Below are positions 1,962-18,418 of a stretch of 64,000 nucleotides of DNA, piece by piece. Position 1 is the stretch's first letter; each line of letters begins with the position of its first letter. The translations under genes were made by a program, and so were the position numbers. The stretch is taken from positions 16,145 through 80,144 of the forward strand of contig SDNP01000012.1 in NCBI GenBank assembly GCA_004524445.1, in the 5' to 3' direction. This DNA is from Candidatus Thorarchaeota archaeon. Its GTDB lineage: Archaea; Asgardarchaeota; Thorarchaeia; Thorarchaeales; Thorarchaeaceae. The notes below the pieces were generated by a model. It did no database searches. It saw only the letters and a list, made by a program, of their open reading frames with translations, and was not told the DNA's origin.

Positions 1962-3149
1962 TTGGCTGAAATTGTCACAAGACCATCAAGACGGATCACC
2001 AACATGATTGCCAAGGAGCTGCGTCTTATTGTGAAGGATAAGGTGGCGCTATTTCTCATTTTTCTCCTACCTGCCGCGCTCATCGGCATGTTATATTGGA
2101 CAACAAATCAGAGTTCTTTTGGAGGGTTTGGAGGTGGTGGTGGCGGTAGAGATGCAGGTGATGCCACTAATACCACAGACACTAGTGGGTTTGAAAGTGA
2201 CTTGGTACTAGGTCTCATTGATAGAGATACTACAACTTCATATCCCGGTCAAGACCTGTCTGAAAATTTCACTGGTTACCTTCGAGAATTCACGAGAGAA
2301 CTGATTATCTACAATGATACTAACAAAGCCTATCGGGACCTGTATGAGGAAAAAATCGCAGGGTATATTGTCATTCCGGACGGTTTTGAAGAGAATTTGA
2401 CTGAGAATAATCCGACCTATGTAGAGGTCCATGTTGATGCAACTGATTTCCTCGCTGAGTCTCGAATACAAGGTGTTGTACAAGGGGCTACCATAGTATT
2501 TCGCGCTTCAAAGATGTGGATTAAGTCGGAGGTCTTTCCATCCGTCAAAATTGAATTCACTCCAGAGGGGAATTACATGAATATTTCATTCGGAGGATTC
2601 ATTGTGATTTTCTCAAGCTATCTTGGAATCGCCATGACATCTGCACAGTCTATCGTTGGCGATGTGCCACTGAGGAGAATGTTGCTTACTCCGACTAATC
2701 GGCTCGAAGTAATAGTTGCTAAAGTGATGGGCTATCTTATTATCGGTTTCTTCCAATCCCTTCTTCTGATTACTCTCTGGATTCTAGCCTTTAATCTCTC
2801 TCTTAATACGGGATTTGGATCGCTTGTCGCGATTATGAGCTTGACCTCCTTGACTGGGTCCACCACTGGATTACTGATTTCTGCAATTGCGGACACGAGA
2901 CTTCAAGCAAATCAGATGTTCTTGTTTGTCTTGTTTGGATCTGTGATTCTATCTGGATTCTTCATTGATGTGGGTTTCCTTGACGAGGTTCTCCCCCTCA
3001 ATCAAGGCTTACGACTGCTTATTGACACAGCTTTCAAGGGACTGAACCTACTTGATGTGTTTGACAAGGTATTGAAGCTGCTTGGGTTCTCGATTGCTGC
3101 GATACTAGTGGCGACTTTTGTATACGCCAAAAAGCCAACTCTAGGTTAG
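1962..3149 (+). CDS. ABC-2 type exporter permease
   Basis: N-terminal KELRLIVKDK..LIFLLP, extracellular domain with GYIVIPDGF, LRRMLLTP..EVIVAK motif, multiple C-terminal TM helices; TTG start. Confidence 0.9.
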   Translation: MAEIVTRPSRRITNMIAKELRLIVKDKVALFLIFLLPAALIGMLYWTTNQSSFGGFGGGGGGRDAGDATNTTDTSGFESDLVLGLIDRDTTTSYPGQDLSENFTGYLREFTRELIIYNDTNKAYRDLYEEKIAGYIVIPDGFEENLTENNPTYVEVHVDATDFLAESRIQGVVQGATIVFRASKMWIKSEVFPSVKIEFTPEGNYMNISFGGFIVIFSSYLGIAMTSAQSIVGDVPLRRMLLTPTNRLEVIVAKVMGYLIIGFFQSLLLITLWILAFNLSLNTGFGSLVAIMSLTSLTGSTTGLLISAIADTRLQANQMFLFVLFGSVILSGFFIDVGFLDEVLPLNQGLRLLIDTAFKGLNLLDVFDKVLKLLGFSIAAILVATFVYAKKPTLG

Positions 3150-3156
3150 TGATGAT

Positions 3157-4842
3157 ATGGTACAAAGAAGTGAAACAAAGCCCCTTTCTGAAGACGAAGA
3201 CATCCCTTTTGTAGAAGAAGCATATTTCACAGGAGCTAGGATTGGCGAGGCCATAGATTGGTGCATTGAACGGAAGGATAGAGAATTACACTGTGAAGTT
3301 GAGGGAAGATTAAATTCAACAAACAAAGATGTAGAATTCAATGGAAGAATTCTCACTGTTAAGAAAGGGCTCATCTCAAGGAAAATTGCGGTCATTATCA
3401 ATGAGGATATGCAATCAAAACGGAGAGATGGGTTGGACGCAGTAGTGACAGTTGGGGGAAACACGAGTTCCCAAGAAGATGTCGCTGCCAGTCAAATCAC
3501 TGTTCAAAACTACCTGAGAAGAGATATGTCCGGAGATCTCTATTATGATGGTCGTGACCTACAACAGGCCGTCAAAGATGCCACGAAGATGCAAAAGAAC
3601 CGGCAGATATCCTGCACTGTTTGGGGCAAGAGAATGTCGGACAAGTTACCCATTACAATCAAGGGCAATCTAGTAGGCTCAGCGGCTTCCCCAGCCCCGA
3701 TCCTTCCCGAAGGTTTCCTTGAGGTGCGTGTAGAACCCGAGGACTCAGTTGGAAGCCCCAAGATATTCACGGTTGTACAGCCACAATTGATTATAGGTCC
3801 CCGTACGGATCCCAATCTTACCGTTATCGCAGATAAGGTGTATATTCAGCCATTTTCATGGATTGAAACACCAGCGTATAGGAATGTGATTGAAACAAGG
3901 AATCTCACTGTGAAGGTAAGAAGCGGTAAGAAGATAATTGAGAATGTGTCCTTCTCTATCAAAGAAGGAGAGATGCTTGCAGTCATCGGAGAATCAGGTG
4001 CAGGAAAATCAACAACCATCAAAGCGTTGATTGGAGACATTCCAAGCACAGGAGTGGCCCGAATCGCGGGCATAGACTCACGGAATGCTCAGAAAGTGCG
4101 CTATTTCTTTGGTTACTGCCCGCAGGACCTCTCGTACATGTATGAAACGTTTACACCTCTCGAAAACATCATTGCTTTCGGGAAGCAGTATGACATAGCA
4201 GAGTGGCAGTTGATCCAAGAAGGAAAGACACTGCTTCGTGACTTTGGCATTCTAGAGAAGGGCAACAGCCCAGTAAAGGAGCTAAGCGGTGGACAACAAC
4301 GTAGGGTTTCAATTGCGATGGCGCTGGTTCATCGTCCGAAAGTACTTCTGATGGACGAACCAACTTCCGGTCTGGATCCGGACAATAGAAATGAGCTTTG
4401 GCAGTTTCTTGATTATATCAACCAAGAATATGGCACCTCAATGGTAGTCATTACTCACTATCCAATAGAAGCAGAATTCTGCGATAAGGTAGCAGTATTC
4501 ATGCGTGGTAAGAGCCTTGTGGCATTTGGCACGCCGGCGAACCTAAAGGCCTCAATGCCAAATAGGGGATTCTCAGTAGGTGTAGTCCTGGAAGAAGTTG
4601 ACCCCCGAGCCCGGCCGACCCTTGAAGAGGTTGAGGGAGTCACTTTCGTGCTTCAGCGGGGAGAATTAGTCAAAGTCTTCACGGAGGAGCCGCTTCAAAT
4701 TATCGCAGAAAGATGTGTAGAAGCCCTCTCTTCAAAAGGAATTGAAGTGAAGATTGTAAAGACAAAGGCAGTGGCCGATATGGTTGATTATTACATCGCC
4801 GTAACAAGAGGCCTAATCACCGGCACCATAGAGAAATCATAA
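3157..4842 (+). CDS. ABC transporter ATP-binding protein with N-terminal tandem TrmB-like subdomains
   Basis: Walker A GESGAGKS, signature LSGGQ, Walker B LLMDEPTSGLD, H-loop ITH; ~240-aa N-terminal extension with two related repeats. Confidence 0.9.
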   Translation: MVQRSETKPLSEDEDIPFVEEAYFTGARIGEAIDWCIERKDRELHCEVEGRLNSTNKDVEFNGRILTVKKGLISRKIAVIINEDMQSKRRDGLDAVVTVGGNTSSQEDVAASQITVQNYLRRDMSGDLYYDGRDLQQAVKDATKMQKNRQISCTVWGKRMSDKLPITIKGNLVGSAASPAPILPEGFLEVRVEPEDSVGSPKIFTVVQPQLIIGPRTDPNLTVIADKVYIQPFSWIETPAYRNVIETRNLTVKVRSGKKIIENVSFSIKEGEMLAVIGESGAGKSTTIKALIGDIPSTGVARIAGIDSRNAQKVRYFFGYCPQDLSYMYETFTPLENIIAFGKQYDIAEWQLIQEGKTLLRDFGILEKGNSPVKELSGGQQRRVSIAMALVHRPKVLLMDEPTSGLDPDNRNELWQFLDYINQEYGTSMVVITHYPIEAEFCDKVAVFMRGKSLVAFGTPANLKASMPNRGFSVGVVLEEVDPRARPTLEEVEGVTFVLQRGELVKVFTEEPLQIIAERCVEALSSKGIEVKIVKTKAVADMVDYYIAVTRGLITGTIEKS

Positions 4843-16962: not shown

Positions 16963-17134
16963 AGACCAGCTAACTCGACATCCTTCGAAAAAGCATGGAA
17001 ACTGCATTATATTTGACTATCTTTTTCGTAAAGCGGATAATCAAAAGGTATAATACTGATTTCTAGTAAATTTATCCGCGAATCCGTTTGTCAACCATCG
17101 GGATTGTAGGGCAACCAAAGGAAATGTTCGCGGG

Positions 17135-18418
17135 ATGAATCGGGAAGAAATGCTGAGCTCAATCATGAACATCCTAAGCGGGATGAAAATCGATTCAGAG
17201 GTTGAGCCAGAGAGAATACGACCGCCTCTAGTACATTCTAGAAAACGACGGGATCTGAAGACGCTGGAGGATGAGCTCCGTTTGACCATGGATGAGCTCG
17301 AACAGACGTCGTCTCTGGGTATCCTCCTCGGCCGATTGGCGAACCTACATCTTCAGGAGGGGGACTTCTCCTCAGCAATCCTGCTTTATGAACGGGGACT
17401 ACGAATCGAACCAAAACAACCCGAAGCGTGGACAAATCTAGGCTTGGCAAAGATACTCTCAAACAACTCAGATACTGCAATTGGCTGTCTTGATACTGCC
17501 CTTGAGCTGGATTCGACTAATTCGAGAGCGATCTGTTTCAAGGGCCTTGCCCATCTGAAACAAGGTTCTGTTGCTGAGGCTAAGAGAGTCTTCAGCGACA
17601 TTGTAGACTATCAACCCAAATGCGAACGCGCACTGATTGGTCTGGGTCTGTGCCACAAGAAGAAAGGCGAACTGGATAAAGCAATCTCATGGTTCATGAA
17701 GGCCGACATGGAAAATAGTGGGAGTCTTGCAGCAGAATTGGAGTTGGGGAAGTTATACTTGGAACAGAAGCAATACAGGAAAGCTGAGGAGGCATTTCAC
17801 GAGGCTGTGAAAATCGATGGGGGCAACCCAACAGCAATTGTGGGGCTGGGCGACGCCCAATTTGGGAAACAAAAATACAACGAGGCATTATACTTCTACA
17901 ACAAGGCACTGACAGCAGTAAAGGGAGACCCCGAGCTCTGGGTCAAGAAAGGCAACGCTCACAAGATGAATCGTTCGTATGAAGAAGCTGCTGAGGCATA
18001 TCAAAAGGCAATACAGGCAAATCGTGAATATATCCCGGCGTGGATAAAAGCCGCACAGGTTTATGTTTTGATGAAGGATGCAGATACCGCCCTGGAGTTC
18101 TTTAAGACAGCAATATCGCTTGCCCCAGAGAACGCGGATGTCGTCCATCAACGGGGACTCGTGAATCTCTCAATCGGGAATCTGAATGCGGCATTGGCAG
18201 ACTTCGACAAAGCTTTTTCGGTCGATGCGAGTAATCCGGAACATCTATACTACAGAGCTGGCATCTTGGAGAAACTTGAAAGGTATGATGAAGCACTGAG
18301 AACATGGCAAATTGCCAGAGATCTGTATGAAGATATCGAGAATACCACTCGAGAAGCAGAATGCAATGCAAAGATGAAACGTCTGAAGCGTCTCCATGAT
18401 TTAGAGGAGTACGAGTGA
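17135..18418 (+). CDS. Tetratricopeptide repeat protein
   Basis: About 10 TPR units (AWTNLG, ALIGLG, LELGKLY, LWVKKGNA, AWIKAA). Confidence 0.92.
   Translation: MNREEMLSSIMNILSGMKIDSEVEPERIRPPLVHSRKRRDLKTLEDELRLTMDELEQTSSLGILLGRLANLHLQEGDFSSAILLYERGLRIEPKQPEAWTNLGLAKILSNNSDTAIGCLDTALELDSTNSRAICFKGLAHLKQGSVAEAKRVFSDIVDYQPKCERALIGLGLCHKKKGELDKAISWFMKADMENSGSLAAELELGKLYLEQKQYRKAEEAFHEAVKIDGGNPTAIVGLGDAQFGKQKYNEALYFYNKALTAVKGDPELWVKKGNAHKMNRSYEEAAEAYQKAIQANREYIPAWIKAAQVYVLMKDADTALEFFKTAISLAPENADVVHQRGLVNLSIGNLNAALADFDKAFSVDASNPEHLYYRAGILEKLERYDEALRTWQIARDLYEDIENTTREAECNAKMKRLKRLHDLEEYE

Follow-up and report, generated by a model that had tools for sequence, protein, structure and literature searches.

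The window analyzed here is a 64,000-nucleotide stretch of DNA from a Candidatus Thorarchaeota archaeon (assembly GCA_004524445.1, contig SDNP01000012.1, positions 16,145 to 80,144), taken from a source genome of 2.79 Mb that is about 90% complete; the closest homologues, too, bear the name Candidatus Thorarchaeota. Six co-oriented open reading frames (ORFs) on its forward strand span positions 1962-18418 and form the gene cluster under study. In order, they encode an ATP-binding cassette (ABC) permease of the ABC-2 type, an ATPase with a TrmB-like N-terminal extension (ATPase1), a membrane protein that joins a subtilase (S8) domain to a GIFT domain (the S8/GIFT protein), a second ATPase (ATPase2), a giant protein with a stalk of thrombospondin type 3 (TSP3) repeats and a tetratricopeptide repeat (TPR) protein. 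The first four genes constitute a core that is conserved across several Asgard lineages, and the last two accompany it in Thorarchaeales. The features of the cluster are collected in Table 1.

Table 1. Features of the six-gene cluster, its flanks and selected neighbors of the core in other Asgard loci (positions are those of the window unless a locus name precedes them)
Feature	Position	Strand	Basis
ABC-2 permease, 395 aa	1962-3149	+	ORF, Pfam
Permease outer loop, Gly-rich stretch	2109-2190
ATPase1 (TrmB-like N-terminus and nucleotide-binding domain)	3157-4842	+	ORF, Pfam
ATPase1 N-terminal extension, residues 1-245, two tandem TrmB-effector-like beta/alpha units	3157-3891	+	Pfam, model
ATPase1 nucleotide-binding domain and C-terminal domain	3892-4842	+	ABC_tran 99.5 bits
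S8/GIFT membrane protein, 1454 residues	4864-9228	+	ORF, Pfam, fold
S8/GIFT signal/anchor, N-terminal region and subtilase domain, predicted to be catalytically dead, residues 1-460	4864-6243	+	Pfam, alignment
S8/GIFT super-beta-sandwich (residues 472-740) and further beta-sandwiches including P-like domain (743-975)	6277-7788	+	model
S8/GIFT GIFT domain (residues 976-1237) and immunoglobulin (Ig)-like domain (1238-1338)	7789-8877	+	fold, profile
GIFT-domain insert, Gly-rich stretch	7825-8007
S8/GIFT transmembrane (TM) helix (residues 1358-1376) and ~78-residue helical cytoplasmic tail ending VGGV	8935-9228	+	hydropathy, model
ATPase2, 329 aa	9221-10210	+	ORF, Pfam
Giant TSP3 stalk protein, 2251 aa	10207-16962	+	ORF, Pfam
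Giant protein, propeller	10324-11406		Pfam
Giant protein, cytoplasmic domain	16585-16959
TPR protein, 427 aa	17135-18418	+	ORF, Pfam
Flanking 606-residue frame without Pfam match	3-1820	-
Flanking 1110-residue protein	18431-21763	-
TPR_12-type neighbor of S8/GIFT	L028:11899-12849
TPR_12-type neighbor of S8/GIFT	L023:11180-12007
TPR_12-type neighbor of S8/GIFT	L024:7979-8806
TPR_12-type neighbor of S8/GIFT	L032:9266-10225
Ras-family small GTPase downstream of ATPase2 (f12)	L022:10148-10672		Pfam
Ras-family small GTPase downstream of ATPase2 (f12)	L033:8517-9050		Pfam
Long ATPase beside S8/GIFT (f24)	L030:15611-17488

Locus layout and conservation of a four-gene core

The permease and ATPase1 genes are separated by 7 nt and the ATPase1 and S8/GIFT genes by 21 nt, while S8/GIFT overlaps ATPase2 by 8 nt and the ATPase2 and giant genes share 4 nt. 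These ORF coordinates agree with the initial annotation, which had described five co-oriented genes with such gaps and overlaps, followed by a TPR gene. Several start codons are uncertain: the permease may begin at TTG 1962 or ATG 2004, the S8/GIFT gene at a TTG and ATPase2 at a GTG. Between the giant gene and the TPR gene lies a longer interval of 172 nt. An oligo-T run and TATA-like boxes occur in it, and the TPR gene may therefore be transcribed from a promoter of its own.

The six-gene order is identical in 9 of 10 Thorarchaeales loci fetched from other genomes, including the second family (f2), and a full-length S8/GIFT homologue is found in all 24 genomes examined from the same family. 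The TPR gene is syntenic in 9 of the 10 loci as well, with no TPR gene detectable in locus L017. This gene arrangement is not a product of chance. Across the wider set of loci the conserved core comprises the ABC-2 permease, the TrmB-type ATPase1, S8/GIFT and ATPase2, the last of which accompanies the core in all loci examined. The four genes stay adjacent in families f12, f21, f24 and f27 with their order and orientation shuffled, and core adjacency is seen in six family-level lineages in total (f1, f2, f12, f21, f24 and f27). Neither the giant TSP3 protein nor the Thorarchaeal type of TPR protein is present beside the core in the four families outside Thorarchaeales. The co-conservation in other Thorarchaeota and Asgard genomes on which the initial annotation had staked its proposal is therefore found.

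A phyletic scan of 400 Asgard genomes, using the C-terminal part of S8/GIFT and the N-domain of ATPase1 as markers, recovers one common pattern for the two. The S8/GIFT and ATPase1 markers are detected, respectively, in 74 and 80 of 85 genomes of f1 and in 16 and 17 of 19 genomes of f12; both are present in every genome of f2 (1/1), f7 (5/5), f21 (6/6) and f22 (3/3), and both are absent from f9 (0/135), f5 (0/31) and f18 (0/22). By submitter name, the other lineages include Freyarchaeum, Jordarchaeales, Ranarchaeia, Helarchaeota and Hodarchaeales/Hodarchaeota. That the genes are neighbors without any common function is extremely improbable, given a synteny that extends across 16 genera, an adjacency that survives rearrangement in four other families and phyletic profiles that match.

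The cluster is bounded on both sides by opposite-strand genes. The sole recognized part of the downstream 1110-residue protein is an N-terminal GNAT acetyltransferase domain, and the wider flanks encode unrelated functions, namely the GNAT protein, PolX, DNA ligase and redox enzymes.

The S8/GIFT protein

Pfam assigns the subtilase domain to Peptidase_S8 at 132 bits, and the best solved relatives of the domain are Tk-SP (2.4e-40) and then subtilisins, with site-1 protease (MBTPS1/S1P) not among the best 60 listed. When aligned to Tk-SP (3afg), the domain has Ala in place of the nucleophile. All 114 homologues carry Asp where the oxyanion Asn would be, the Ser position is occupied by Thr (57), Ala (50), Ser (6) or Val (1), and the GTSMAxP motif is replaced by TTAA[SA]AA, leaving no GTS serine motif. 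Asp32 and His64 are kept in most members, with one or the other additionally lost in several lineages (G035, G040, G025, G014, P0307, P0321 and P0346). The same catalytic loss is also found in other Asgard classes, and the inactivation is therefore older than the split of these lineages. Judged by these residues, S8/GIFT is an ancient pseudoprotease. The initial annotation had already called it one. The missing nucleophile motif and oxyanion Asn contradict its further suggestion of a role in maturing the surface protein, and an active protease that matures an adhesin was rejected on the catalytic residues.

One metagenomic protein of 1246 aa, P0300, has a compact layout of S8, GIFT (MBTPS1_4th above cut-off) and CARDB domains and, unlike the Asgard S8/GIFT homologues, keeps an intact Asp-His-Asn-Ser tetrad with S1P-like spacing. 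The S1P-like order of S8, P-like, GIFT and TM segments, the retention of Asp32 and His64 in most members and the Thr found beside the nucleophile position in about half could suggest that S8/GIFT is an active, S1P-like regulated protease with a non-canonical Thr nucleophile, which cleaves a membrane or surface substrate. We consider this very unlikely, since the oxyanion replacement is universal among the homologues, Asp32 or His64 has been lost repeatedly, most members have Ala or Gly where the nucleophile would be, and the intact tetrad of P0300 illustrates what an active form looks like.

The pseudoprotease is followed by a series of domains that were examined in a structural model of residues 455-1454 (m8f95abddb65f; predicted local distance difference test (pLDDT) score 79.9). 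In the model, residues 472-740 resemble the N-domains of GH15 glucodextranase/glucoamylase, GH94 phosphorylases and GH116 (Z 18-21.6), and residues 869-975 align to the P-like part of S1P. The GIFT fold named in the initial annotation is confirmed by a match to IFT52 (5fms_A; Z 22.7, root-mean-square deviation (rmsd) 2.2, 192 of 228 residues, 19-21% identity). Residues 480-873 of S1P (9csd_A), which cover its P-like and GIFT domains, are collinear with S8/GIFT residues 869-1236 (Z 19.1 over 308 residues), and the whole of OST48, with its GIFT domain, beta domain and TM segment, aligns at Z 18.3-18.6 over about 320 residues; the match to 8b6l_N reaches Z 18.6 over 319 residues, yet with an rmsd of 16 as the domain orientation differs.

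Profile comparisons are consistent with this assignment. A regional profile searched against the PDB finds IFT52 (3.8e-12) and S1P (4.4e-4) and does not find OST48. The Pfam GIFT model scores 23.6 bits with the whole protein, below its cut-off of 27.2, and passes at 28.4 bits with the domain alone. Among 12 homologues, IFT52_GIFT is matched in 11, DUF4350 in 8 and ABC_transp_aux (PF09822) in 7, the G030 homologue reaching 37.6 bits with PF09822 against a cut-off of 34.7. The GIFT domain also carries a disordered Gly/acidic insert of about 60 residues. Beyond the TM helix, the cytoplasmic tail contains many nearly invariant columns among 61 sequences and an invariant Gly that adjoins the C-terminus.

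Three eukaryotic proteins share parts of this architecture. S1P (PDB 8UW8, 9CSD) has the same order of Peptidase_S8 domain, P-like beta-sandwich, GIFT domain and C-terminal TM anchor, and the published structure describes the same S8, P-like and GIFT layout (PMC11231238). In contrast to S1P, S8/GIFT is catalytically dead by its residues, has about 400 extra residues between the S8 and P-like domains, appears nearer to archaeal Tk-SP in its S8 sequence and is coupled to an ABC transporter. OST48/WBP1 (PDB 6S7T, 8B6L) shares the layout of GIFT, beta domain and C-terminal TM helix but lacks an S8 domain and any sequence-level match, and no link to AglB/STT3 is seen, although AglB linkage was not examined; Asgard WBP1 homologues have been published for Heimdallarchaeia only (PMC10307638). 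The N-terminal GIFT domain of IFT52 (PDB 5FMS, 5FMR) is the best match of the S8/GIFT domain in both structure and sequence. IFT52, however, is a cytoplasmic IFT-B subunit, whereas the GIFT domain here is extracytoplasmic and interrupted by its disordered insert.

All named long S8/GIFT proteins are Asgard archaeal, and an exhaustive profile search finds only about two dozen clusters at 50% identity that share the S8/GIFT architecture. The remaining GIFT matches differ in layout and include bacterial giants with several GIFT domains; P0276, P0278, P0282 and P0285, for example, are about 3000-4100 aa long with 6-8 GIFT-like stretches each, and the one that is named comes from an Ignavibacteriota metagenome-assembled genome.

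The permease, the ATPases and the Thorarchaeales additions

The permease matches the Pfam family ABC2_membrane_3 at 99.9 bits (cut-off 31.6). Hydropathy indicates about six TM helices and an extracytoplasmic loop of about 155 residues, with a Gly-rich stretch, between TM1 and TM2. Similar Gly-rich, low-complexity stretches occur in this outer loop (GGFGGGGGG) and in the GIFT-domain insert (GGGFGAFGNFGGG).

The N-terminal extension of ATPase1 matches Pfam Regulator_TrmB (PF11495) at 35.4 bits against a cut-off of 22.2, and its structural model (pLDDT 79) contains two tandem units. The best structural match of the extension is TrmB 3qph_A (Z 13.8, rmsd 1.9, 97 residues), with the runner-up at Z 7.1, and Foldseek gives an E-value of 3.7e-6 for the same comparison. 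A PilZ-like reading of this domain was rejected, as its Foldseek probabilities of 0.08-0.4 lie far under those for TrmB. Positions T98, G100 and D108 are conserved in the domain. Matches from an ATPase1 profile search of the PDB are dominated by the nucleotide-binding domain (NBD), hence no residue-level alignment to TrmB is obtained. The fold is shared with the sugar-binding effector domain of TrmB (PDB 3QPH, 2F5T), but here the domain is duplicated, lies N-terminal to an ABC ATPase and is not accompanied by a DNA-binding domain. The long ATPase beside S8/GIFT in f24 has a different, longer N-terminal extension that cannot be aligned to the TrmB-like units.

Both ATPases carry complete motifs and would by this measure be catalytically competent. 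Among 33 homologues of ATPase1 there is no variation in the Walker A, Q-loop, signature, Walker B Glu or H-loop. ATPase2 matches ABC_tran at 94.8 bits, and apart from Walker A the same motifs are invariant among its homologues; its Walker A is present in the window protein, several of the homologue rows being N-terminally truncated. DrrA is the best NCBIfam model for both proteins and ABCA-type exporters are their best solved relatives, which for ATPase1 are ABCA3, ABCA1, ABCA7 and ABCA4. Pfam and motif analysis thus agree with the earlier description of one permease with two different ATPases, one of which has a domain like that used by TrmB for sugar binding.

The giant protein is laid out as a type I membrane protein with a signal, a beta-propeller (residues ~40-400), an Asp-rich stalk of about 1690 residues, a TM helix (2108-2126) and, by hydropathy, a cytoplasmic domain of 125 residues after the helix. 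Pfam identifies 35 TSP3_bac repeats together with propeller families of the FG-GAP/BBS2-like type, and the stalk contains 59 DxDxDG motifs and 23% Asp, in keeping with the giant Ca-binding stalked protein first proposed. In 10 genomes the stalk spans 1634-1710 residues even though sequence identity is just ~55-65%, and this near-constant span points to selection on length. The propeller passes the Pfam cut-offs for BBS2_Mid (45 bits), Beta-prop_BBS7 (35.9 bits) and a carrageenase propeller, matches that probably reflect a general FG-GAP-type likeness. Language-model features (0.82-0.89) liken the cytoplasmic domain to adaptin/COPI appendage Ig-like subdomains, a resemblance that serves as a lead only. 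Strong matches to the domain are confined to f1 (64/85) and f2 (1/1), where the frames are invariably ~2200-2300 residues long; weak homologues (E 1e-7 to 1e-3) end frames of ~800 residues in 85 of 135 f9 genomes.

Ca-binding TSP3 repeats and an FG-GAP-like propeller head are shared with Myxococcus CglD, other TSP3-repeat surface proteins and integrin alpha-type propellers. The giant protein scores 524 bits with the CglD model NF033765 (cut-off 400), a score that comes from 16 separate repeat stretches only, and it differs from CglD in being archaeal, in its type I membrane topology with a cytoplasmic domain and in the conserved length of its stalk. The literature on Asgard thrombospondin or integrin yielded nothing relevant. 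The last protein of the cluster matches TPR_1 at 158.9 bits and is predicted to be cytoplasmic, as hydropathy indicates no TM segment.

Other genes occupy comparable places elsewhere. In f12 the position of the giant gene, immediately after ATPase2, is taken by a Ras-family small GTPase (Pfam Ras, 163-171 bits). Genomes of the Freyarchaeum/Jordarchaeales type encode mutually orthologous TPR_12-type proteins (275-319 aa, E ~1e-58) that are convergent against the 3' end of S8/GIFT; these are not orthologous to the Thorarchaeal TPR protein, and they adjoin S8/GIFT even where the ABC genes lie elsewhere.

The initial annotation viewed the whole module as a dedicated system for the export, maturation or display of the giant stalked protein. 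Strict synteny of the six genes in Thorarchaeales, the 4-nt overlap of ATPase2 with the giant gene, the conserved stalk length and the presence of conserved cytoplasmic parts in both membrane proteins, followed by a cytoplasmic TPR protein, all speak for such a system. It is nevertheless unlikely. In f12, f21, f24 and f27 the core is not accompanied by the giant protein, whose cytoplasmic domain is strong in f1 and f2 only. With a signal peptide and a TM anchor of its own, the giant protein needs no more than Sec insertion, and a dead subtilase implies no maturation by cleavage. Because the core exists without them, the giant protein and the TPR protein are considered later Thorarchaeales additions rather than the purpose of the transporter.

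The proposed machine and its significance

The closest bacterial counterpart in composition is GldA/GldF/GldG of Flavobacterium, together with other systems that combine ABC-2 proteins with ABC_transp_aux (PF09822). In these systems, as in the core, an ATPase, an ABC-2 permease and a membrane-anchored auxiliary protein of the GIFT clan are encoded together. The window likewise encodes together the components of the ABC-2 plus GIFT-clan auxiliary class (PF12698/PF01061, PF00005 and PF09822/PF14258/PF23355). The GldAFG likeness put forward initially holds for this composition and does not extend to membership. The GldA equivalog TIGR03522, with a cut-off of 402.6 bits, is not reached by ATPase2 (140.7) or ATPase1 (105.3), and GldF and GldG models are absent from the NCBIfam matches of the permease and S8/GIFT at E <= 0.01. 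Because no protein reaches GldA/F/G equivalog scores, the module is placed outside the Gld family. Further differences from GldAFG are the two different ATPases, one with TrmB-like units, and an auxiliary protein of ~1450 residues with a dead S8 domain, a carbohydrate-enzyme-like sandwich, an Ig domain, a single C-terminal TM helix and a conserved cytoplasmic tail. The host is also an uncultured archaeon, without an outer membrane or a type IX secretion system. A literature search found no published description of the Thorarchaeota system and nothing on a GIFT domain in Asgard archaea.

On balance, and with moderate confidence, we favor the interpretation that the core encodes a four-protein Asgard ABC-2 machine (type V, ABCA/DrrA-like) with S8/GIFT as its non-catalytic outer subunit, and that this machine is probably tied to the surface in Thorarchaeales. 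The interpretation is preferred because the genes stay adjacent through rearrangement, their phyletic profiles match, the protease is dead and the GIFT fold is genuine. S8/GIFT would act as the extracytoplasmic auxiliary subunit of the transporter, the part proposed for GldG beside GldF and GldA (PMC9127263), and ATPase1 and ATPase2 would form a heterodimer on a permease homodimer. Wzt ATPases of O-antigen ABC exporters carry a carbohydrate-binding domain, and the TrmB-like units could similarly sense or select a cytoplasmic, sugar-like ligand. ATP hydrolysis would then export a glycoconjugate or lipid, or pass force, to the S8/GIFT ectodomain, which would bind rather than cut by means of its dead protease cleft, its carbohydrate-enzyme-like beta-sandwich and its GIFT domain. 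In Thorarchaeales the module would have gained a fixed-length, Ca-binding stalked receptor and a TPR adaptor, additions that probably link the machine to attachment or to display at the surface. It is possible that the cargo is a glycoconjugate or lipid and that a ligand gates the machine, as suggested by the types of fold only. For the bacterial system, membrane localization of GldA is known to need GldF and GldG (PMC9127263).

Several points weigh against this four-protein machine. In f7 and f22 the core genes are unlinked and S8/GIFT lies apart from the ABC genes, although the two markers retain their common phyletic pattern in these families too. One permease with two ATPases is unusual among ABC-2 systems, and the cargo is undefined even for GldAFG. 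Physical interaction among the components is a prediction. No glycosylation genes are found in the flanks of the cluster. A complex prediction for ATPase1, ATPase2 and the S8/GIFT cytoplasmic tail returned a score of 0.00, with controls not run, and speaks neither for nor against the machine. Weak support comes from RNA libraries generated in two salt-lake studies, in which contigs of 97-100% identity cover portions of each of the six genes and one crosses the ATPase1/S8-GIFT junction, but such contigs show neither strand, level nor a single transcript and may reflect DNA carry-over; positions 17343-19343 are almost uncovered, a gap on which no weight is put.

The same components might instead serve mechanotransmission, with ATP changing the conformation of the S8/GIFT ectodomain, and in Thorarchaeales that of the stalked receptor as well, in the manner of FtsEX, LolCDE and MacB. 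The outcome would be regulated adhesion, release or surface movement rather than export. A large multidomain ectoprotein on one TM helix with a highly conserved cytoplasmic tail would suit this role, gliding systems provide the nearest analogues (GldAFG and the TSP3-rich CglD, at 524 bits), and non-orthologous TPR proteins adjoin S8/GIFT in two separate lineages. We regard it as improbable, given that the permease belongs to the ABC-2/type V class and that the NBDs resemble ABCA/DrrA exporters, not the MacB/FtsX type VII class, and that no motility apparatus is known in these archaea.

A further, evolutionary proposal is speculative, and we rate it as a long shot. The Asgard protein with S8, P-like, GIFT, Ig and TM parts would represent the prokaryotic stock of the eukaryotic GIFT membrane proteins, giving rise to S1P, possibly to OST48 and, more distantly, to the GIFT domain of IFT52. 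The Asgard protein would at first have served as the outer subunit of an ABC machine that handles glycoconjugates or lipids, wired in Thorarchaeales to an integrin-like receptor of fixed height with an adaptor/coat-appendage-like cytoplasmic domain.

For annotation, the database label 'S8 family serine peptidase' is misleading, as the protein is, by its catalytic residues, an ancient pseudoprotease and in several Asgard classes accompanies one special ABC transporter. Its best structural matches are the eukaryotic GIFT proteins, all three of them (IFT52, site-1 protease and OST48), and their origin can be tested with an Asgard out-group. The module also offers a tractable handle on the function of GldG-type auxiliary proteins, which is undefined even in bacteria, and the fixed-length Ca-binding stalk with its cytoplasmic domain bears on the contact of Asgard cells with particles or partners.

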